Assembly (NCBI GenBank): GCA_964399075.1 | Contig: CAYNPK010000001.1 | Span: 160,961-224,960, forward strand | Direction: 5' to 3' | Source: an uncultured Candidatus Saccharibacteria bacterium | GTDB taxonomy: Bacteria > Patescibacteriota > Minisyncoccia > Phycocordibacterales > JACOZG01 | DNA length: 64,000 nt | Shown here: positions 1,482 through 61,651 of the stretch, in pieces | How the letters are laid out: the number at the start of each line of letters is the position of its first letter | Position numbering within the stretch: position 1 is the first letter of the stretch | Made by a program: the position numbers and the translations under genes | The notes under the pieces: generated by a model | What the model was told of the DNA's origin: nothing | Databases searched by the model: none | The model's input: the letters and a program-made list of their open reading frames with translations, nothing else

Positions 1482-2276
1482 CTAACTCCCAAAGGTCATA
1501 AAATTGGAACTTTCATATTTTCTAGTTGCGCGGTTAAATATATTGATTGAAATAATAAACCAAAATATTGCAAGAACGCCAACCAACAAAAGTTTTCCTA
1601 GAGAAATATCCCTAACTATTTCAACTGGTAAAGCCCCAACCAAAAGTGACGGAATGGCGAATGTAAAAATAAATCTCATCACTCCCTGGAAAGCACCGCC
1701 ATGGAATAGCGAGGGAGTTAAAAATAACTCAAAAAGACTTCCTGTTACAGAATTAGCGTCGGTGAAGAAAAAACTCGTTGAATAAATTGCTATTGCTGCC
1801 GACAAAAACACAATCGTGGAAACAAGAATCAGTAATGCTATCAGAAGAATCTGATAAATAGTTGCATGAATAAGAAAAGCATAAATTCCCAAACAGACAA
1901 GTCCAAAAACGATATCGCCAAGAGCCGAAACACCAAACGACGACGTAGCAATTCTGACGAGTAGATTTTTTGGCGAAAGCATAAAGCGATCGAATACCCC
2001 GATTGCAACATGATCGGCAAGTTTTCTGATTCCCGCTCCTACTGAAAATACAATGCCGAAACACAGAGCAACGAAGCCTTGCAAGCCAATAATATCAGCA
2101 ACAGTCCAACCGCCAATAACGCCAACAGATTTCACAAAAAATCCCCACAAAATTAGAAAAGCTGCATTGTTGATACTCATTCCAACAATGTTCATTAGAA
2201 AACTGGTGCGAAGTTCCGCACTACTTTGGATATTCTTTTTTATTGCGTATAAGGCGAAATATAATTCTTTCATCAT
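1482..2276 (-). CDS. ABC-2 family transporter permease
   Basis: Polytopic membrane protein (~6 TM) directly downstream of an ABC ATPase and a paralogous permease on the same strand. Confidence 0.55.
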   Translation of the reverse strand: MMKELYFALYAIKKNIQSSAELRTSFLMNIVGMSINNAAFLILWGFFVKSVGVIGGWTVADIIGLQGFVALCFGIVFSVGAGIRKLADHVAIGVFDRFMLSPKNLLVRIATSSFGVSALGDIVFGLVCLGIYAFLIHATIYQILLIALLILVSTIVFLSAAIAIYSTSFFFTDANSVTGSLFELFLTPSLFHGGAFQGVMRFIFTFAIPSLLVGALPVEIVRDISLGKLLLVGVLAIFWFIISINIFNRATRKYESSNFMTFGS

Positions 2277-4066: not shown

Positions 4067-6775
4067 CTACTTCCGAGAGCCGGAGGGTGAGACTATTTTA
4101 GTTTTGAGAGTTCCGCGGTGCGAACTGCGAAAAGTTTTCTTGATATCTATCGTCAATTGACCATTCTTCATTTCCACACTCAAGACTCCCCCGCTCTCAA
4201 TCCGACGCGCGATGATAAATTCGGCGATGAGATTAAGAATTTTGTTTTGAATTAGACGCTTGAGCGGACGCACGCCGTACTCGGCACTGAAACCTTCCTT
4301 GGCGAGATAGTCAACCACGGCCGGCGAGACTTCCAGCTCAATATTTTTCACCTTCAAGCGCTCACTGACCAGACGAAGTTGGATATCAACAATTTCTCTA
4401 ATCACCACCTGGTCAAGCGGATTGAAAATGATAATATCATCCAGGCGATTAAGAAATTCGGGACGGAAGTGTTGTTTAAGAGTCTCCATAATTCGCGATT
4501 TGGTTTCCTCAAATTGACCGAGAACATTGGGCGTGGAAGCAAAACCAATTCTCTGCCAACGCATCATGTACTCACTCCCAAGATTAGAAGTAAGCATAAT
4601 GATTGTGTTTTTGAAGTTGACAGTGCGACCCTTGGCGTCAGTCAGACGGCCGTTGTCTAGAACTTGCAGGAGAATATTGAAGACTTCCGGATGAGCCTTC
4701 TCAATCTCATCAAACAAGAGCACGGCATAAGGACGATGACGAACCGTCTCCGTTAGAGAACCACCTTCTTCGTAGCCGACATAACCGGGTGGCGAGCCAA
4801 TCATTTTAGAAATAGAATATTTCTCCATGTACTCCGACATATCAATTCGCACCAGAGCCTTCTCGTCATCAAACATAAAGGAGGCTAAACTCTTAGCCAG
4901 TTCCGTCTTGCCCACACCGGTAGGGCCCAAGAGAATAAATGAGCCAATCGGTTTATCAGGGTCGCCCACACCGGCGCGCGAGCGCTTGACCGCTTCAGTG
5001 ATTTTGCGAATCGCCTCGTCTTGACCACGAACGCGTTTACGAATCTCATCCTCAATCCGACCGAGTTTTTCCGATTCGGACTCCAACATCCGTGTGACCG
5101 GCACATGAGTCCAACGCGCCACTACTTTAGCAATATCCTCATCAGTAATCTGCTCCTTAAGCAAACGACGAGAACTTTGCAATTTTTTCAGCTTGCTCTC
5201 GCGAGACTTTAATTGCTTTTCTAATTCCGGAATTTGACCATAGCGAATTTCCGCCGCTCGAGAGAGATCAGCTCGTAATTCTGCCTGCTCGGCCTCAGAA
5301 CGCAGTTGTTCCAAATTTCGCTTCGATTCTTTCAATTCATTGAGAATTTGCTTTTCGTTTTTCCAACGTAATTCCAGTTCACCGACTGACTCGCGCCTGT
5401 CGCTGATTTCTGCTTCAATTTTTTTGATTCTTGCTTTAGCTTTCTTATCATCATTCTCGCTAACCTCTTTCTTAAGCGCCTCCTTTTCCACTTCCAGATG
5501 CATAATAGCCGCATCAGCGTCACCCAAAGTTTGAGGCTTGTTCTCCAGCTGGAGACGCAAGGCCGAAGCTGATTCGTCAATTAAATCAATCGCCTTGTCC
5601 GGCAAGAAGCGATCACTGATATAGCGACTAGAGAGATTGACTGCTGCCACGATCGCCCCATCGGTAATATGAATCCCGTGATGAGATTCGTACTTACTCT
5701 TCAAACCTCGCAAAATAGTGATCGCATCCTCAATGCTCGGCTCCTCCACATAAACCGGTTGGAAACGACGTGTTAGAGCTTGGTCTCGTTCAATGTGTTT
5801 CTGGTATTCTTTAATCGTCGTGGCGCCAATCGCTCGCAACTCACCACGCGCCAGTGGTGGCTTCAACATATTAGCGGCGTCAATAGCCCCTTCAGCAGCG
5901 CCAGCGCCAATAATTGTGTGAATTTCATCAATAAACAAAATAATTTTATTATTCGCCTTCTCAATTTCTTTCAAAACGTTTTTTAAACGTTCTTCAAATT
6001 CACCACGATACTTGGTCCCAGCCACCAATAAACCAATATCAAGCGAGACCAGATCCTTGTCGCGCAAAGAATCCGGAACATCACCCTTGGCAATCTTGAT
6101 TGCCAGACCTTCCGCAATAGCGGTCTTGCCCACACCCGCTTCGCCAATCAAGATTGGATTATTTTTCGTCCGACGAGAGAGAATCTCCATCACTCGTTGA
6201 ATTTCTTCTTCGCGACCGATGACCGGATCCAATTTATCTTCACGAGCCATCGTCGTTAAATTCTTAGTAAATTTTTCCAACATCTTCATTCGACGAGGTT
6301 GTTCCAATTCCGGCCCCCCGGGAGATTGACGCAAGTCCTGGACCACCTTCAAGACGCGATCTTTGGTGACTCTAAAGCGCTGAAGAATTTCATTGCCTTG
6401 GTTGGGCGTTTCTAGGAGAGCCAGGATCAAATGCTCACTGGAGACAAATTCATCGCCTAGATTAGTAGCAATCTTCCCTGCTGTGTCGAAAACTCGTACT
6501 AAATCCGGAGTAAGATAAATTTGGTATGAAGCAGAGACAGTCGCTCCGCCCTCATGACCACTATCGAGACTATCGATAACATAATCAGACAACATCACGG
6601 CATCAACTTCGATTTTATCAAGAATAGACAAGAAGACACTTTCTTCTTGGAGTAAGAGCGCCGCTAATAAGTGGAGTGGATTGACCTGATTTTGGCCACG
6701 CTCAATAGCCAATTCGTGAGTCTTACGAATAACTTCTTTGGCTTTAGCGGTAAAATTTGAAAATGGTGGTGGCAT
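4067..6775 (-). CDS. clpB: ATP-dependent chaperone ClpB
   Basis: Two AAA+ modules ([15 protein letters not shown]; [15 protein letters not shown]) separated by a long coiled-coil M-domain, Clp N-domain, 902 aa. Confidence 0.95.
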
Positions 6776-50928: not shown

Positions 50929-52248
50929 TTACGGTTCCAGTCTCTTTACTCCGCGATATAGATAGGTTACTTCACGCACATTGGTAACTCCCAAAAGCTT
51001 CATAAGCATGCGCGTTGGCCCTGGAGCGAAACCGCCATGCGGTGGACAGCCGTATTTGAAGAAGTTAAGATATGAATTAAAGCTAGACACATCAAGCCCT
51101 TGTTCTTGTATTTGTTTGGTCAGTTGTTCCATTCGATGCTCTCTCTGAGCACCACTGGTAATTTCCAAACCATTCCAAAGCAGGTCAAAACTCTTTGTAA
51201 TTGTCGGGTCATCTTCTTTACGCATACTGTAAAAAGCTCTCGCCTTAGTGGGAAATTCATGAATAAATACAAATTCAGAACCTGTTTCTTTTAGAATATG
51301 CTCACAGATAGCTCGTTCTTCTTCCGGACTCATATCACCATCTCGTTCATCAGATATGCCCATACGACCAGTTATTTCTTTCGCTTCAGCAACGGTTAAT
51401 CTAGGAAATGGGCTGGTGGGAATCTGAATTTTTCTGTGATACATCTTTTCGATTTCATCTCCATACTTTTCTTCCACCGCTTTTAGCATTGCCACAATCA
51501 TCTTTTCTTCTTCACCCATAAGATCGTGGTGCGAAGAAATGTATGACATTTCTATATCGTACATCGTAAACTCCGTATCGTGTCGTGAAGTAAAAGATGG
51601 GTTAGCCCGAAAGACAGGGCCGACTTCAAACACCTTTTCAAAACCGGACGCCATCGCCATTTGTTTATACAGCTGTGGACTCTGAGCGAGACGTGCTTCT
51701 CTGTCGAAATATTTCACTGCAAATAATTCTGCACCAGACTCAGTGGCAGTCGCTGTTAATTTTGGAGAATGTATCTCAATATAATCGTTCTCTATACAAT
51801 ATGAACGAAAAGATTGTTCCATCGTTGTCCATACTTTGAAAATTAAAGCTTTTTCTGGTTTACGTAAATCAAGCCATCTCCAATCAAGACGAATTGACTG
51901 ATCCGTTTCTTCTTGTTGTCCCTTTTCAACTATCGGTATTGGGAGATCAGGATCTGCGAGAGAAAGGATGATAATATTTTTTGCTTCAATTTCAAAACCC
52001 GACGATGCTTGTTTCTCCACTTTTGCTAACCCTCTGATTTCAATGACTGATTCGTGTGTCAATGTTTTAGAAATAGCAAACACATCTGGCTGATGTTTCG
52101 TTATGACAACTTGTACTATTCCGGTAATATCGCGTACTAAAATGAATTTAATATTCCCTTGATCGCGAATTATCTGCGCAAAACCAACAATAGTAATTAC
52201 TTCGCCAATATGTTTTTGAATATCGCGGATGTGTATTCTTGTTTTCAT
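50929..52248 (-). CDS. aspS: aspartyl-tRNA synthetase, archaeal/eukaryotic-type class IIb (native low-GC copy)
   Basis: N-terminal OB fold, motif 2 region FRANPSFTSRHDTEF, motif 3 GCPPHGGFAPGPTRMLM; preceded by a T-box leader. Confidence 0.8.
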   Translation of the reverse strand: MKTRIHIRDIQKHIGEVITIVGFAQIIRDQGNIKFILVRDITGIVQVVITKHQPDVFAISKTLTHESVIEIRGLAKVEKQASSGFEIEAKNIIILSLADPDLPIPIVEKGQQEETDQSIRLDWRWLDLRKPEKALIFKVWTTMEQSFRSYCIENDYIEIHSPKLTATATESGAELFAVKYFDREARLAQSPQLYKQMAMASGFEKVFEVGPVFRANPSFTSRHDTEFTMYDIEMSYISSHHDLMGEEEKMIVAMLKAVEEKYGDEIEKMYHRKIQIPTSPFPRLTVAEAKEITGRMGISDERDGDMSPEEERAICEHILKETGSEFVFIHEFPTKARAFYSMRKEDDPTITKSFDLLWNGLEITSGAQREHRMEQLTKQIQEQGLDVSSFNSYLNFFKYGCPPHGGFAPGPTRMLMKLLGVTNVREVTYLYRGVKRLEP

Positions 52249-52254
52249 AATATA

Positions 52255-52480
52255 AAAATTGCCCTTACAAAATAATAAATCAAGGTTGACGATTTTGTAA
52301 GGGCGATCTACGATCGCGGTACCACCTTACTTCATTGGATTTTTATCCAATCTCTTACCAACTTCCAGTGGTTTGAAGCTGTGACGGGCTTATCCCGGAA
52401 GATTCTACTCTCTCAAAAGTGAGATTTCTTTCCTCGGCTCGACCGTGTCAACGGTTTCATTGCCTTTAATTAAATAATAG
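52255..52480 (-). promoter_or_regulatory. T-box riboswitch leader upstream of aspS
   Basis: Minus strand carries AAGGTGGTACCGCG (T-box sequence) followed by a 12-bp terminator stem GCCCTTACAAAAT/ATTTTGTAAGGGC plus AAUUUUUAU, ending ~12 nt before the aspS ATG; GAGAGAG and a candidate GAU specifier upstream. Confidence 0.7.
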
Positions 52481-52607
52481 CAAAATCGTTAATATAACGC
52501 AAATCCTATACACACAAAGATGATTATGCTATAGTACTTCTGGAACTTCAAGATAGTCTTGAGGTATGTTCTTTTAAAATCCGATCCTGAAAGGAGGAAC
52601 AGCACGT

Positions 52608-52886
52608 ATGCGCACAGCAGAAGAAGTCATGATGCGCTGCAAGCTCATCCTCGATCAGTCGGACATCGTCCTTCTGGTCGATAAGAGTAGCAGCCCAACG
52701 GCGGCCTATGACATGGTTATAAACACAACTCACGACGACGAGACCGCGAAGGCGGCTCGCTGGCTCGGTGTATTGAAAAGGGATTACCCCGATCGGTACA
52801 CTGAAATCACCCACAGCACTCTCAGCCACGTTCAGAGGAACACGGCGAAGAAAGGAGAACGGAATGAAAACGACGTATGCAGTTGA
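52608..52886 (+). CDS. hypothetical small protein (92 aa), first gene of the GC-rich island operon
   Basis: Strong AAAGGAGG RBS; overlaps the start of the AsnRS-like gene; ~55% GC. Confidence 0.45.
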   Translation: MRTAEEVMMRCKLILDQSDIVLLVDKSSSPTAAYDMVINTTHDDETAKAARWLGVLKRDYPDRYTEITHSTLSHVQRNTAKKGERNENDVCS

Positions 52887-54186
52887 CCTACTCCACAGCC
52901 CTTCGGATGGAACGACGGTTGTGCTCTACGGCTGGGTGAAAGCCCGCCGTCGGCATAATCACGTCGTTTTTCTGGACATCACGGACTCCACCGGTTCGAT
53001 GCAGTGCGTGGTCGAAGTTGGCAACAAATCAGCTTTTGAACTCGCGCGGCGCATGAGCCAAGAGACGGCAGTTAAGATCACTGGTGTCATTGCAGATACT
53101 TGCAGAGCGAACCCATCGCGAGAAATCCGCGTTCACAACATCGAGATCGTCGGAGTGAGTACGATTAATGTCTCTCCGTATCCGCGGGGAAACATCGACA
53201 TCCAAGACCCAAGGTTGCAGGAGCAACTTTTGGACAAACGGCATTTTTATCTCCGCAACGAGAAACTTGCCGCCATCCTGAAGTTTCGTCACATCCTCAC
53301 GAGGATCGTGCATCAATGGTTCCATAAGAATGGGTTCATTGAGATCCACGCTCCGGTGCTGACACCGACGCCGCTATACGACGATCGTACTGCTATGGCA
53401 ATCAAGGTACACGAGCAAGATGTATACCTAACACAGTGCGTTGGGTTCTATCTCGAACAAGCAGTTCATGCTCTCGAGAAGATCTACAACATCGGTCCCA
53501 GCTTCCGCGCCGAAGAGAGCCGCTCCAAGAGACATCTCATGGAGTACTGGCACATCAAGGCAGAGTTGGCGTTCGTGGACTTTGAGGACATGGCTTTAGT
53601 AGTCGAGCGGTTCATCCATGATGTGAGCGAGCAGTGTATCCGCGAGGGTTGCGAGCTTGCGAATATCATCGGCACCGAGGTGTGCAGTGACGGCCTTAAA
53701 ACTCCGTTTCCGCGCATTGACTACGCCGAGGCGGTGGAGTGGCTCAGGACGCAGGGTTCCGATATCGAGTTTGGCAAAAGCATGGGTTCCGACGAGGAAA
53801 CTATGCTCTGCCAGCGGTTCGGCGACACTCCGTTTTGGATTGTCGGCATTCCACGATCCATCGAACCCTTTCCTTATGTGGTTGACGCAGCCGATACTCG
53901 TCGAACGAAGACGGCTGATTTGATCGCAAGTCGAGGGTTTGGTGAGCTTCTCGGTATTGCCGAGAAGATCCATTCTCTGTCAATGCTCGATGAACGACTG
54001 GCAGAGAAAGGTAAAGCCGGTGACTCCCGCTACGAATGGTTGCGGGACCTTCGTCAATATGGCTGTGTACCGCACGGAGGCTTTGGCATGGGTCTTGAAC
54101 GGTTGATCCGTTGGCTCTTGCAGATCCCTCATGTGCGAGACACCATTCCTTTCCACCGAGCGTTCGATAGAAGGATTGATCCATGA
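52864..54186 (+). CDS. asparaginyl-tRNA synthetase-like class IIb aaRS (island copy)
   Basis: N-terminal OB fold, motif 2 GPSFRAEESRSKRHLMEYWHIKAELAF (AsnRS-like EFW/EAE pattern), motif 3 GGFGMGLERL. Confidence 0.75.
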   Translation: MKTTYAVDLLHSPSDGTTVVLYGWVKARRRHNHVVFLDITDSTGSMQCVVEVGNKSAFELARRMSQETAVKITGVIADTCRANPSREIRVHNIEIVGVSTINVSPYPRGNIDIQDPRLQEQLLDKRHFYLRNEKLAAILKFRHILTRIVHQWFHKNGFIEIHAPVLTPTPLYDDRTAMAIKVHEQDVYLTQCVGFYLEQAVHALEKIYNIGPSFRAEESRSKRHLMEYWHIKAELAFVDFEDMALVVERFIHDVSEQCIREGCELANIIGTEVCSDGLKTPFPRIDYAEAVEWLRTQGSDIEFGKSMGSDEETMLCQRFGDTPFWIVGIPRSIEPFPYVVDAADTRRTKTADLIASRGFGELLGIAEKIHSLSMLDERLAEKGKAGDSRYEWLRDLRQYGCVPHGGFGMGLERLIRWLLQIPHVRDTIPFHRAFDRRIDP

Positions 54187-54238
54187 ATACCCCATATATC
54201 AAGCCAATCACGGCAAGGCACACTGAAAGGAGCCCATT

Positions 54239-55546
54239 ATGCAAAGGACACTGATCAAGCAGATCGGATCCGAGGTCGGCAAGACCGTTCGGATCTGCGG
54301 ATGGGTGGAAGTGCTCCGCGATCAAAAGCGGATGCAATTCCTCATCATCCGCGATCACACCGGTAGCACGCAAGTGCTTCACGAGAAGTCGGCAAACGCC
54401 GAACTGACGGTAGCTATCGCCGACCTCACGCCTGAAAGTGCAGTGGAAATCATCGGCAAGGTTATTGCCAATCCGGTGGTCAAGCTGGGCGGGCTGGAAG
54501 TAGTGGTCGAGTCGGTAAACATCGTCAGCAAAGCAGAAGCACTTCTGCCGTTTGGCGAGAACCCGACTATCGAAACCCGGCTGGACTGGAGATTTCTGGA
54601 TCTGCGTACCCCGCAGAACCTGCTCGTCTTCAAGATCCAGACGGCGGCCGAGCACGCCATGCGTTCGTTCTGGGCATCGGAGGGGTTCATTGAAATGCAC
54701 TCCCCGAAGTTCATGGGTAGCGCAAGCGAGTCCGGTGCGGAGCTCTTCGAGGTAAAGTACTTCGATCGCAAGGCGTATCTCGCTCAATCGCCACAGTTCT
54801 ACAAACAGATGGCGATGACGGCGGGGTTCGACCGTGTGTTCGAGATTGGGCCGGTCTTTCGGGCCAACCCGTCTTTTACTTCGCGGCACGACACGGAGTT
54901 CACCAGCGTGGACGTCGAAATCTCGTGGATTGACTCCCACGAGGACGTTATGCAACTTGAGGAACGTTGGCTTCGCCACGTGCTTCAAGCGGTGAAAGCC
55001 GAGTATGGCGAGGAGATCAAGGCGACGTTCGGCACGGAGATCGCGATTCCCGAGCTTCCGTTTCCGCGCGTGACTATGGAAGAGGCGTACAATATCCTCG
55101 ACCAAATGGGTCACCGCATTGAGCGGGGCGAGAAAGGCGACCTCGATCCGGAGGGCGAGAGGCTCTTGTGTCGGCACTTCCATGAAAAGACCGGCCACGA
55201 GTTCGTCTTCGTCACCGAGTACCCCGCTGTGGTCCGGGCGTTCTACCACATGCGTCCCGAAGGCAAACCCCGTCTTACCAAGAGCTTCGACCTTCTCTGG
55301 AAGGGACTTGAGGTGACGACGGGGGCGCAAAGGGAGCATCGCTACGAAATCCTGATGGAACAAGCTAAGGAGAAGGGGCTCTCACTTGAACCCATTCAGT
55401 ACTATCTGAACTTCTTCCGCTATGGCTGTCCACCTCACGGCGGTTATGGCTTCGGCCTCACCCGCATGCTCATGGTGATGCTGGGTGCAAAAAACGTGCG
55501 CGAGGTGACATACCTCTACCGAGGCGTCAACCGACTCACTCCGTAG
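54239..55546 (+). CDS. archaeal-type aspartyl-tRNA synthetase paralog (island copy)
   Basis: Same length and ~60% identity with the native aspS at 50929-52248, including the FRANPSFTSRHDTEF block, but ~57% GC. Confidence 0.8.
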   Translation: MQRTLIKQIGSEVGKTVRICGWVEVLRDQKRMQFLIIRDHTGSTQVLHEKSANAELTVAIADLTPESAVEIIGKVIANPVVKLGGLEVVVESVNIVSKAEALLPFGENPTIETRLDWRFLDLRTPQNLLVFKIQTAAEHAMRSFWASEGFIEMHSPKFMGSASESGAELFEVKYFDRKAYLAQSPQFYKQMAMTAGFDRVFEIGPVFRANPSFTSRHDTEFTSVDVEISWIDSHEDVMQLEERWLRHVLQAVKAEYGEEIKATFGTEIAIPELPFPRVTMEEAYNILDQMGHRIERGEKGDLDPEGERLLCRHFHEKTGHEFVFVTEYPAVVRAFYHMRPEGKPRLTKSFDLLWKGLEVTTGAQREHRYEILMEQAKEKGLSLEPIQYYLNFFRYGCPPHGGYGFGLTRMLMVMLGAKNVREVTYLYRGVNRLTP

Positions 55547-55570
55547 CAAGAAGGATCGGCAACTAACAAA

Positions 55571-55620
55571 CCCGGGAGGTTACGAGCATTTTGCTACGAG
55601 CTTCCCGGGTTTCTTTTTTC
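55571..55620 (+). terminator. rho-independent terminator
   Basis: CCCGGGAGG...CTTCCCGGG stem followed by TTTCTTTTTTC. Confidence 0.55.
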
Positions 55621-55647
55621 TCAACCAAACCGAAACGGAGGTAACAA

Positions 55648-56679
55648 GTGAATAGAAAGATAGACCGAGAAGCGTACCTTGCGTACGCACGAGCACTTAG
55701 CGAAAAGGAACATGGCTTAATCCGGGAGTTTCAAGGATGGCTACCGAATACAATAATCGACTGCCACGCGCACTGTAATCTGCCGGAACATGCTCATTCA
55801 ATTGATGATCGCACGTACAATCACATGCTCTCGACTTTCCCGAGCTTCAGCTTGGCAGAGTCAAAGGAATGGCACGCTTTGTTTCATCCGAACAAGACGA
55901 TACGTTCGTTGCGGTTCCCCAAGACGTTCCGAGGAATCAACCATCGAGCGGCAAATCTATACTTACTGGGACAAAGCGATGCAGATGATCGAGTTGCGCT
56001 CTACGGACTTCCCGATGATCCGGAATACACAATCGGAATGCTGGCTCATCCACGGGTATCGACGCTCAAGATGTACTACTCATACCTTGAGCCGTCGGCA
56101 ATGGAGATTTACCAGTACTTCCCGAAGGTGATTCTGGATGAAGCACAAAGGAGAGACATACCGATCATCCTGCATCCACCGAGACGAATAACGATGTGTC
56201 TTGATCAGATACTCACGTTGGCAAAAGACTTCCCCCGTTTGCGGATCTGTCTTGCCCATTTGAGCCTAACCAAGAGTGTCGTGTCTGGACTTGAGGAGGC
56301 GTTTACGGAAATTGCTCGGCTAACACGAGTACACTTCGACACGGCACTGGTGCCATCAGCAGAAGTGGTCACGATGGCCTTGCAAATTGTTGGGTCGGAT
56401 AGGATCATGTACGGCTCCGACGAGCCGCTCAACTTGATCCGCTCAACACCATATGTACACCCGGACAAGGGTGAGCGTTTAGCAACGGAGTATCCGTACC
56501 ATTGGGTTGATATGTCGGATTACCAAGCATACAAACACTTGGCAACCGGCATCACTCACGCTCATTGGCAGGCACTTCAAGCTGTGAAAACAGCCGTGTC
56601 CGCTCTTCCCGAACGGGAACAGGATATGGTGAAGCAAAAGCTCTTTCACGACAATGCAAAACTGTTCCATGGCTTCTGA
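55648..56679 (+). CDS. amidohydrolase-2 family (TIM-barrel metal-dependent hydrolase)
   Basis: IIDCHAHC N-terminal metal motif, MYGSDEP, C-terminal LFHDNAKLF, 343 aa. Confidence 0.65.
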   Translation: MNRKIDREAYLAYARALSEKEHGLIREFQGWLPNTIIDCHAHCNLPEHAHSIDDRTYNHMLSTFPSFSLAESKEWHALFHPNKTIRSLRFPKTFRGINHRAANLYLLGQSDADDRVALYGLPDDPEYTIGMLAHPRVSTLKMYYSYLEPSAMEIYQYFPKVILDEAQRRDIPIILHPPRRITMCLDQILTLAKDFPRLRICLAHLSLTKSVVSGLEEAFTEIARLTRVHFDTALVPSAEVVTMALQIVGSDRIMYGSDEPLNLIRSTPYVHPDKGERLATEYPYHWVDMSDYQAYKHLATGITHAHWQALQAVKTAVSALPEREQDMVKQKLFHDNAKLFHGF

Positions 56680-61114: not shown

Positions 61115-61202
61115 TTGCTAGCATAGTAACGAAAATATTGAGGTTCTGCAACAAAAAATCAAAAATCCCCCACCATTTAGGTGAGAGATTTCTGATTTTA
61201 AT

Positions 61203-61651
61203 GACTCCGCGCCGATAAGCCGAATTCTGTTCCGTCTTCCGTAGGATGACGAATGATGATTATTTATCTAGCCCCTCAATTACTATCGGGGTCAAGCGGC
61301 ACTTCCTTAGGAAAACTTGCGTCCTCCCAAAGACACGGCCTTGCAACAGGTAGGGTTTGCCGAGTAGATCGCCTCGCGACGATTCTTCTATTGTGGCTTC
61401 CCACTTAAGAGAAACCTCGATAGACTTTTCACCTTTCTCCATCAATTAAATAAATTAACTGATGGATAGTATTGTCTCTGTGGCACTTTCCCTCCGACCA
61501 TGTCACCATGGTCGGGGTGGGGATTACCCACTACCATCTTCCCTGCCCTGATCTGAAACAGTCAGAACAAGGGTTGTTCGGACTTTCCTCTATTATCACT
61601 CCGTCGTCAATGACGACGGAGTGATAATAGCAATCATCTGGCGCGAAGCCT
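61203..61651 (-). ncRNA. rnpB: RNase P RNA (bacterial type A-like)
   Basis: Minus strand carries GAGGAAAGUCCGAAC (P4 5' strand), AUCAGGGCAGGGAAG...GGUAAUCCCCACC (P10-P12 region), ACAGAAUUCGGCUUAUCGG (P4 3' strand), and an 11-bp P1 pairing of the 5' and 3' ends; 18-bp P3 hairpin; overlaps the spurious ORF 61260-61445. Confidence 0.75.

Follow-up and report, generated by a model that had tools for sequence, protein, structure and literature searches.

The gene aspS, encoding an archaeal-type aspartyl-tRNA synthetase (AspRS), lies on the minus strand of a 64,000-nucleotide (nt) stretch of DNA from an uncultured Candidatus Saccharibacteria bacterium (contig CAYNPK010000001.1, assembly GCA_964399075.1; this whole stretch is called the window below, and its positions are used throughout). 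Judged from its sequence, the leader directly upstream of aspS is a genuine T-box in a genome of the Candidate Phyla Radiation (CPR). A first-pass annotation of this DNA had proposed such a leader at positions 52255-52480, and our results bear it out: RF00230 alignment, folds and covariation agree on a T-box whose antiterminator and terminator exclude each other, and the span takes in the element in full, likely -10 box and U-tract included. The conventional long Stem I that was expected there is not present, as Stem I is ultrashort and carries its codon in a 6-nt apical loop, with no internal specifier loop. This is no new kind of system, since each of its modules is already known. We consider it likely that the leader is a functional T-box that couples aspS expression to the charging of tRNA-Asp(GUC), with termination of transcription as the main output.

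The T-box sequence that had been noticed in the aspS leader is the 14-mer AAGGUGGUACCGCG (equivalent to AAGGTGGTACCGCG) at 52315-52328 on the minus strand. This sequence is present a single time in the 64-kb window, is identical to the published T-box consensus AGGGUGGNACCGCG at 13 of 14 positions, and found no match in 100 shuffles with one mismatch tolerated. The search with Rfam model RF00230, by which the proposal was to be checked, came out differently at the two thresholds applied. At the Rfam gathering score (93 bits) the scan reported no T-box in the window; by E-value, the full model aligned to 52296-52469 (minus strand) with 56.1 bits, at E = 1.4e-11 for the leader alone and 1.6e-9 over the whole 64 kb, and this was the sole T-box match in the window. 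The score stays under the gathering threshold because Stem I positions of the model are absent: 74 of them are shrunk to 4 nt in the alignment, and the remaining modules all align. Moreover, R1, a covariance model specific to the family described below, scores the 5' domain of the window at 95.3 bits (E 7.6e-19). Both the E-value scan and R1 show a real match, which overrules the default Rfam scan as a refutation. The parts of the element, from the promoter side to the gene, are as follows.

52497-52502, minus strand: weak candidate -35 box UUGCGU, predicted from sequence
52474-52482, minus strand: candidate extended -10 box UGCUAUUAU, likewise predicted
52436-52464, minus strand: ultrashort Stem I with a kink-turn (K-turn), 29 nt in total, from the RF00230 alignment and covariation
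52447-52449, minus strand: specifier GAC (Asp), followed by a conserved purine, A, at 52446
52398-52435, minus strand: Stem II, aligned to Stem II of RF00230
52376-52397, minus strand: Stem IIA/B pseudoknot, with IIA = CGG/CCG
52357-52372, minus strand: variable linker hairpin ACCA-CUGGAAGU-UGGU between pseudoknot and Stem III, recognised by eye
52334-52351, minus strand: Stem III, AUUGGAU-AAAA-AUCCAAU, purine-flanked, from the RF00230 alignment and the minimum-free-energy (MFE) and centroid folds
52298-52329, minus strand: antiterminator, from folding and covariation, containing the T-box 14-mer
52261-52304, minus strand: terminator hairpin of 13 bp with an 18-nt loop
52249-52260, minus strand: U-tract AAUUUUUAUAUU, which fills the gap between the stem and the AUG (52246-52248) and doubles as an A/U-rich pre-start region
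50929-52248, minus strand: aspS, archaeal-type AspRS of 439 amino acids (aa), matching NF003483 and TIGR00458

The decoding module begins with Stem I, which consists of a base helix (GGC/GCC), a 4-bp helix (ACCG/CGGU) and the apical loop UUGACA. At its base lies the K-turn, composed of an AAU bulge and tandem G.A/A.G pairs (from AAUGA and CGA); across 19 leaders its tandem G and A never vary and the helices on either side of it covary, a test made at the level of sequence. The hallmarks of Class I T-boxes, i.e., a long Stem I, an internal specifier loop, the AG bulge and the distal platform formed by the interdigitated T-loop motif (IDTM), are missing from the RF00230 alignment. An Asp codon in Stem I had been foreseen correctly, although as GAU. 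That reading was rejected, as the loop holds GAC followed by A, and the aligned column of the family contains GAC or AAC only. In Stem II, a lower helix (GAGGA/UCUUC) and an upper helix (UCUC/GAGA) enclose the S-turn strands AAGAAA and GAGUAGAA; across the same 19 leaders each of the nine pairs has compensatory changes, with hardly any variation in the S-turn strands. The loop AAGC (52388-52391) then pairs with GCUU (52376-52379) as helix IIB of the pseudoknot, for which three of four pairs are compensatory and 98.7% of cells are paired.

Two candidates for the region between the pseudoknot and Stem III were discarded. The hairpin drawn by the MFE fold (GCUUC...GGAAGU, 52360-52380) uses as its GCUU the covarying 3' strand of the IIB pseudoknot, and the linker hairpin ACCA/UGGU agrees better with the relatives, which by eye carry CCGC/GCGG (L001) or GUCG/CGAC (L013, L017) at this position, or nothing (L006). 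Pairing of the linker ACCA with the UGGU bulge, in imitation of a tRNA 3' end, was considered and then abandoned, as the relatives carry unrelated sequences there. At the other end of the module, the candidate -10 box would put the transcription start a few nt before Stem I. By eye, TGCTATTAT or TGCTATCAT stands at the same distance in L001 and L002; a promoter scan picked another site (TTGAAG-17-CATAAT at 52551-52523).

The covariation rests on the 80 best AspRS relatives in reference genomes (52-81% identity), almost all of them from Patescibacteria/CPR assemblies, which carry labels such as Saccharibacteria, WWE3, Paceibacterota, Amesbacteria, Nomurabacteria and Dojkabacteria. A T-box core stands upstream of aspS in 28 of these 80 loci. 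When pairs were counted for the proposed structure in an alignment of the 5' domain (A1, 19 leaders), 97.9% of cells were paired, as compared with 23-46% in slid controls; 19 of 23 pairs were compensatory, and none of 500 shuffles reached the observed values. R1, the covariance model of this module, finds it in 24 of the 80 loci, nearly all of them Patescibacteria/CPR: 23 loci score at least 75 bits and L008 scores 50 bits. Five of the strong hits were outside the training set, and every match lies directly upstream of aspS, with none elsewhere in 597 kb. The distribution is patchy, the close orthologues L003, L004 and L009 being without a T-box. Rfam sees little of this family: the architecture scores 42-61 bits with RF00230, the gathering score was reached by none of the 20 CPR members tested, and even at E <= 0.001 the model misses the actinobacterial example L117 entirely.

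Two of the relatives deserve a separate mention. L015 (2818-2882, plus strand) combines a short Stem I, its loop holding GAC, with a T-box core of normal form, but reaches only 27 bits with R1; by eye, its Stem II S-turn and pseudoknot appear to be missing or replaced. In L010, an Amesbacteria locus, a group I intron match (RF00028, 62.4 bits, gathering 50) occupies 1651-1849 (plus strand), about 1 kb upstream of the aspS T-box.

At the 3' end of the leader two structures compete. The antiterminator consists of helix A1 (UAAGG/CCUUA), the 7-nt bulge UGGUACC and helix A2 (GCGAUC-GUA-GAUCGC); folded alone it reaches -13.0 kcal/mol with the canonical bulge present, in agreement with the antiterminator, inclusive of the T-box sequence, that had been predicted for this leader. 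The terminator arms, GCCCUUACAAAAU (52292-52304) and AUUUUGUAAGGGC (52261-52273), form a hairpin of -19.2 kcal/mol that dominates the fold of the full 3' region. Its 5' arm includes the 3' strand of A1 (CCUUA), the stretch CCCUUAC being common to both structures, and antiterminator and terminator are mutually exclusive. The first-pass annotation had described a 12-bp terminator stem immediately 3' of the T-box, with a U-tract ending about 12 nt before the start codon. Hairpin and U-tract are indeed found there, but the stem has 13 bp, and the distance of about 12 nt applies to the end of the stem; the U-tract fills that gap.

Covariation of the 3' domain was counted in fixed-register segments from 53 leaders (set A3), in which 93.6% of cells are paired for the antiterminator and 93.8% for the terminator, percentages that are partly built in, as A1 and the terminator helix guided the choice of segments. 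Compensatory changes occur in seven of ten antiterminator pairs and ten of 13 terminator pairs. These changes are, together with helix A2, the informative part of the result: pairing of A2 was not imposed on the segments, and all five of its pairs covary. Moreover, the strand common to both structures covaries with each of its partners, so that in column 29 the pairs are UA (29) and CG (21) in the antiterminator and AU (29), GC (16) and GU (8) in the terminator. Covariation thus extends over all helices of the leader, the pseudoknot included.

To call terminators, a loose definition (stem of at least 7 bp) was dropped, given its 37% background at random positions, in favour of a strict one that asks for a stem of at least 10 bp with a U-tract and takes the position of the 5' arm into account. 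By the strict definition, 34 of 51 low-GC leaders carry a hairpin with U-tract; at positions drawn at random from these loci the rate is 5.9%. A hairpin was called in 46 leaders, and in 42 of them its 5' arm begins 14-26 nt downstream of GGUGG, which places it on the 3' strand of the antiterminator; a U-rich tail comparable to that of the window follows the hairpin in nearly all relatives.

The gene behind the leader corresponds to the codon within it. The aspS product scores 496.3 bits (cut-off 353) with NF003483, aspartate--tRNA(Asn) ligase, and 390.8 bits (cut-off 368.4) with TIGR00458 (aspS_nondisc), and is typed by these models as a non-discriminating AspRS. In the family of 25 members (the 24 loci and the window), the specifier column reads GAC in 11 and AAC in 14 (L008, L013, L022, L025, L031, L036, L037, L044, L045, L048, L050, L071, L072 and L079), with no other triplet and with A following in nearly all. 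Such an alternation between Asp and Asn codons agrees with the typing of this AspRS as an enzyme for both tRNA-Asp and tRNA-Asn, and suggests that each lineage monitors one of the two tRNA substrates of its enzyme; it also bears on how the reduced CPR genomes make Asn-tRNA. The antiterminator bulge reads UGGC in 22 of the 25 members and UGGU in three (the window, L046 and L079). In L029 (GAC, UGGC), a tRNA-Asp(GUC) gene lies directly downstream of the T-box-controlled aspS (4354-4430, plus strand), and its discriminator, G73, matches UGGC. This is the only CPR tRNA-Asp seen. The tRNA ligand of the sensor may there be co-transcribed with the regulated gene.

The module is also found outside the loci chosen for their AspRS. 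A specifier-blind DNA pattern derived from CPR leaders, in which the K-turn, the spacing of the short Stem I, the two S-turn strands and the start of Stem IIA are fixed, matched at least 120 stretches of a metagenome collection. Among the matches listed, to which all counts from this survey refer, 108 of 120 stretches carry a T-box core, and these fall into the following groups (GC content as median; ORF, open reading frame).

AUC (Ile), high GC: n = 51, GC 0.71, bulge UGGU, ORF of about 1,040-1,090 aa, hairpin with U-tract in 0 of 51
GAC (Asp): n = 35, GC 0.43, bulge UGGC in 26 and UGGU in 9, ORF mostly 427-453 aa, hairpin with U-tract in 31 of 35
AAC (Asn): n = 13, GC 0.38, bulge UGGC in 8 and UGGU in 5, ORF mostly 428-437 aa, hairpin with U-tract in 13 of 13
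AUC (Ile), low GC: n = 6, GC 0.39, bulge UGGU, ORF IleRS-like (by eye), hairpin with U-tract in 6 of 6
Other: n = 3, GC 0.36, bulge mixed, ORFs of 431 and 454 aa, hairpin with U-tract in 2 of 3

The AspRS-sized ORFs behind the Asp and Asn leaders are 57-86% identical to AspRS of CPR assemblies, and the high-GC Ile group bears the signature of the actinobacterial ileS T-box with its ultrashort Stem I. R1 gives the high-GC ileS leaders 55-71 bits and the low-GC ones 67-83 bits, scores that do not amount to an independent test, as these loci had been preselected by the pattern. The low-GC ileS leaders (L099, L102, L122, L160, L171 and L196; contig GC 0.36-0.43, AUC, UGGU) combine the short-Stem-I module with textbook short-loop intrinsic terminators that follow it.

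Some Asp/Asn leaders of the survey precede genes other than aspS. These encode a class I/II aminotransferase (L110, Pfam-confirmed; L182, by eye), an asparaginase-domain protein of about 170 aa (L133, Pfam-confirmed; L118, closely similar), a YbaK-type tRNA_edit protein (L126) and a protein with a weak GNAT match (L123). Most of these genes would fit an Asp/Asn regulon.

From the leader and its relatives we infer a mechanism in which the leader binds tRNA and responds to its charging, control being exerted on termination and not on translation. The K-turn and the 4-bp hairpin would present GAC and the following A in the apical loop to tRNA-Asp(GUC). Stem II, with its S-turn, and the IIA/B pseudoknot would dock beside the Stem I hairpin and thereby shape a groove that binds the anticodon, and no distal platform would contact the tRNA elbow. 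The UGGU of the antiterminator bulge would pair with the free NCCA end of uncharged tRNA-Asp, and the bound tRNA would hold A1 (UAAGG/CCUUA), so that the 13-bp terminator is blocked and RNA polymerase enters aspS. Charged tRNA could not stabilise the antiterminator, in which case the more stable terminator would form and transcription would stop in the U-tract before the AUG.

Several observations speak against this mechanism. The Rfam score is under the curated threshold, the percentages of paired cells in the 3' domain owe something to the choice of segments, and the platform for the tRNA elbow is missing, though it has been published as generally required by transcriptional T-boxes. The terminator is atypical, with its 18-nt loop and two A between the stem and the U run. 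The bulge of the window is UGGU, in contrast to the UGGC of its closest relative (L158) and of most of the family, and with a G73 tRNA-Asp it would give a G.U wobble; UGGU as such is not rare, occurring in 14 of the 48 metagenomic Asp/Asn leaders among the matches listed. Finally, the sequence UAAGG (52263-52267) in the 3' arm of the terminator, 14 nt from the AUG, could be a Shine-Dalgarno (SD) sequence.

This last point leads to the reading of the leader as a translational T-box, in which the 13-bp hairpin hides UAAGG and uncharged tRNA-Asp frees it, or as a dual version acting on both steps, which we regard as rather improbable. It would agree with the habit of Class III modules, which mostly regulate translation initiation, and with the fact that UAAGG, within the 3' arm, is the only SD-like sequence before aspS; in the subclade of the window (L001, L002, L005, L006, L013, L045, L079 and L158) the AUG moreover stands only 10-16 nt behind the stem, too close for a separate SD. 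Yet an SD-like sequence is absent from the 25 nt before 21 of the window's 40 long ORFs, only nine ORFs have a match of at least 5 nt, and the start regions are A/U-rich like that of aspS, which suggests that initiation in this genome is mostly SD-independent. Since most window genes are without an SD, masking of one is an unlikely control point here, and the spacing of 14 nt is at the long end for an SD. An A/U-rich start without an SD being normal for this genome, we therefore take termination as the main output. The relatives point the same way. A U-run follows the hairpin in nearly all of them. L022, L025, L037, L056 and L064 have a distinct SD on the downstream side of the hairpin, and in L044, L050, L064 and L072 (in L071 by eye) over 100 nt separate the hairpin from the start codon; only transcriptional control is compatible with such leaders. 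Among the matches listed, a hairpin with U-tract is present in 44 of 48 Asp/Asn leaders and in none of 51 high-GC ileS leaders, a contrast that is confounded by GC content. The scarcity of SD sequences in the window and the position of the relatives' SDs outside the hairpin thus weaken SD sequestration as the main mechanism.

Could the leader instead be a decayed remnant that no longer binds tRNA, its hairpin serving as a constitutive attenuator or as the terminator of an upstream transcript? We find this hardly credible. The sub-threshold Rfam score, the missing Stem I platform and the close orthologues without any T-box (L003, L004, L009) are what such decay could look like. Against it, compensatory changes have preserved Stem I, Stem II, the pseudoknot, the antiterminator and the terminator in diverse CPR lineages, the triplet of the apical loop is confined to GAC or AAC, and the same module is functional and structurally characterised in actinobacterial ileS leaders, which R1 scores at 55-71 bits. 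As for the tRNA that is sensed, the leader might respond to tRNA-Asn as well as, or instead of, tRNA-Asp, through a first-position G.U wobble between GAC and GUU; the presence of AAC in 14 of 25 orthologous leaders and the typing of the enzyme as an aspartate--tRNA(Asn) ligase give this some appeal. Bacterial tRNA-Asp and tRNA-Asn usually both have G73, and if both tRNAs carry it here, the bulge would not distinguish them. GAC, however, matches perfectly only tRNA-Asp(GUC), and every family member retains one clean codon, GAC or AAC, a pattern that speaks for one tRNA per leader; we judge sensing of tRNA-Asn by the window leader to be very unlikely, and tRNA-Asp(GUC) remains the ligand that we assign to it.

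Between the T-box terminator and the aspS start of L044, L050 and L071 there is, in addition, a conserved hairpin, AAUAAUCCUCC-N(4-5)-GGAGGA, which could act as a further regulatory element or as an SD that sequesters itself.

Divergently from the T-box leader, an apparent operon occupies 52608-56679 on the plus strand of the window, with the following genes.

52608-52886, plus strand: ORF of 92 aa
52864-54186, plus strand: AsnRS-like class IIb synthetase, under the NCBIfam asnS cut-off
54239-55546, plus strand: second AspRS, typed as non-discriminating, 51% identical to the T-box-controlled AspRS
55648-56679, plus strand: Amidohydro_2 protein

The divergent region has a GC content of 53-56%, as compared with about 43% elsewhere in the window, and its two synthetase genes are each preceded by a clean AAGGAG SD, in contrast to most window genes. 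Homologues of the second aspS adjoin aspS in L006, L014 and L018, and AsnRS-like homologues do so in L007, L024 and L056. The first-pass annotation had called the T-box-controlled gene the native aspS, which implied that the second one is foreign. This is not established. The same paralogues adjoin aspS in other CPR loci; a cluster that recurs in this way is not obviously foreign. None of the ten tRNA genes of the window is for tRNA-Asp or tRNA-Asn. Further along, a class A bacterial RNase P RNA of 450 nt lies at 61200-61649 (minus strand, 152.9 bits), aligning to the 367-position model with several insertions.

Among known T-boxes, the closest counterpart of the leader is found in Class III, to which its decoding module belongs, as far as sequence features can assign it. 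The class description names a short Stem I without IDTM, an apical loop of 5 or 6 nt that holds the specifier, and a required Stem II, and states that Classes III and IV 'mostly regulate translation initiation'; known examples are the ileS leaders of Nocardia farcinica, Mycobacterium tuberculosis and M. smegmatis (Sherwood 2015; PDB 6UFM, 6UFG). The window has a 6-nt loop (UUGACA), and some relatives have one of 5 nt (e.g., CGACA in L005). It shares with the actinobacterial ileS leaders the K-turn, the short Stem I without IDTM, the specifier followed by a purine in the apical loop, the S-turn Stem II, the IIA/B pseudoknot, Stem III and the T-box bulge, and the pattern derived from CPR leaders retrieves, among the matches listed, 51 high-GC AUC/UGGU leaders with ORFs of about 1,050 aa. 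It differs from them in its Asp specifier (Asn in relatives), in its archaeal-type aspS and Patescibacteria/CPR host, in an extra hairpin between pseudoknot and Stem III that many CPR members have, the window included, and in a hairpin with U-tract placed like an intrinsic terminator, which would set it apart from an SD sequestrator.

No paper linking T-boxes to CPR, Patescibacteria or Saccharibacteria was found in the literature searched, nor did we find described there a Class III module that combines Asp/Asn specifiers, an archaeal-type aspS, a spread over CPR and an intrinsic terminator. The word 'mostly' in the class definition leaves room for exceptions already known to specialists. TBDB searched its short-Stem-I model only in Actinobacteria and among truncated Class I hits. 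We put at about even the chances that the leaders make up a widespread, unannotated T-box family of Patescibacteria/CPR which joins the platform-less Class III module to an intrinsic terminator, its Asp/Asn leaders preceding aspS and some genes of Asp/Asn metabolism and similar low-GC leaders preceding ileS.

Published work ties a short Stem I to translational control and explains the long Stem I of transcriptional T-boxes by rapid capture of the tRNA. If the leaders described here do act co-transcriptionally, contact with the tRNA elbow would be no general requirement for transcriptional T-boxes, and the kinetic rationale for the long Stem I would need revision, for instance to accommodate polymerases that are slow or pause, or a compensating role of the linker hairpin. 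Leaders of this kind, conserved and with a terminator behind a short Stem I, offer a natural test of the rapid-capture idea. Being invisible at the curated Rfam threshold, the family also marks an annotation gap, and its compact modules of about 100 nt could be of use in engineering as Asp- and Asn-specific tRNA sensors.

A related regulatory task is known from the Firmicutes. In Clostridium acetobutylicum, an Asn-specific T-box was reportedly linked, in work by Saad et al. (2012, JBC; 2013, PNAS), to tRNA-dependent formation of asparagine; it is said to have the long-Stem-I Firmicute architecture and to control an operon that includes gatCAB. Both leaders would govern an AspRS in tRNA-dependent Asn formation, and the possible Asn specifier parallels the GAC/AAC alternation, but the window leader precedes aspS alone and uses the short-Stem-I module. 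Compared with the Class I T-boxes (Bacillus subtilis tyrS type; RF00230), the leader has no long Stem I, internal specifier loop, AG bulge or distal-loop platform. What it has in common with them is the 14-mer, the 7-nt bulge, the competition between antiterminator and terminator, the K-turn, the Stem II S-turn, the pseudoknot and Stem III, and with these the same regulatory logic, in which the transcriptional output would here be reached through a decoding module of Class III.

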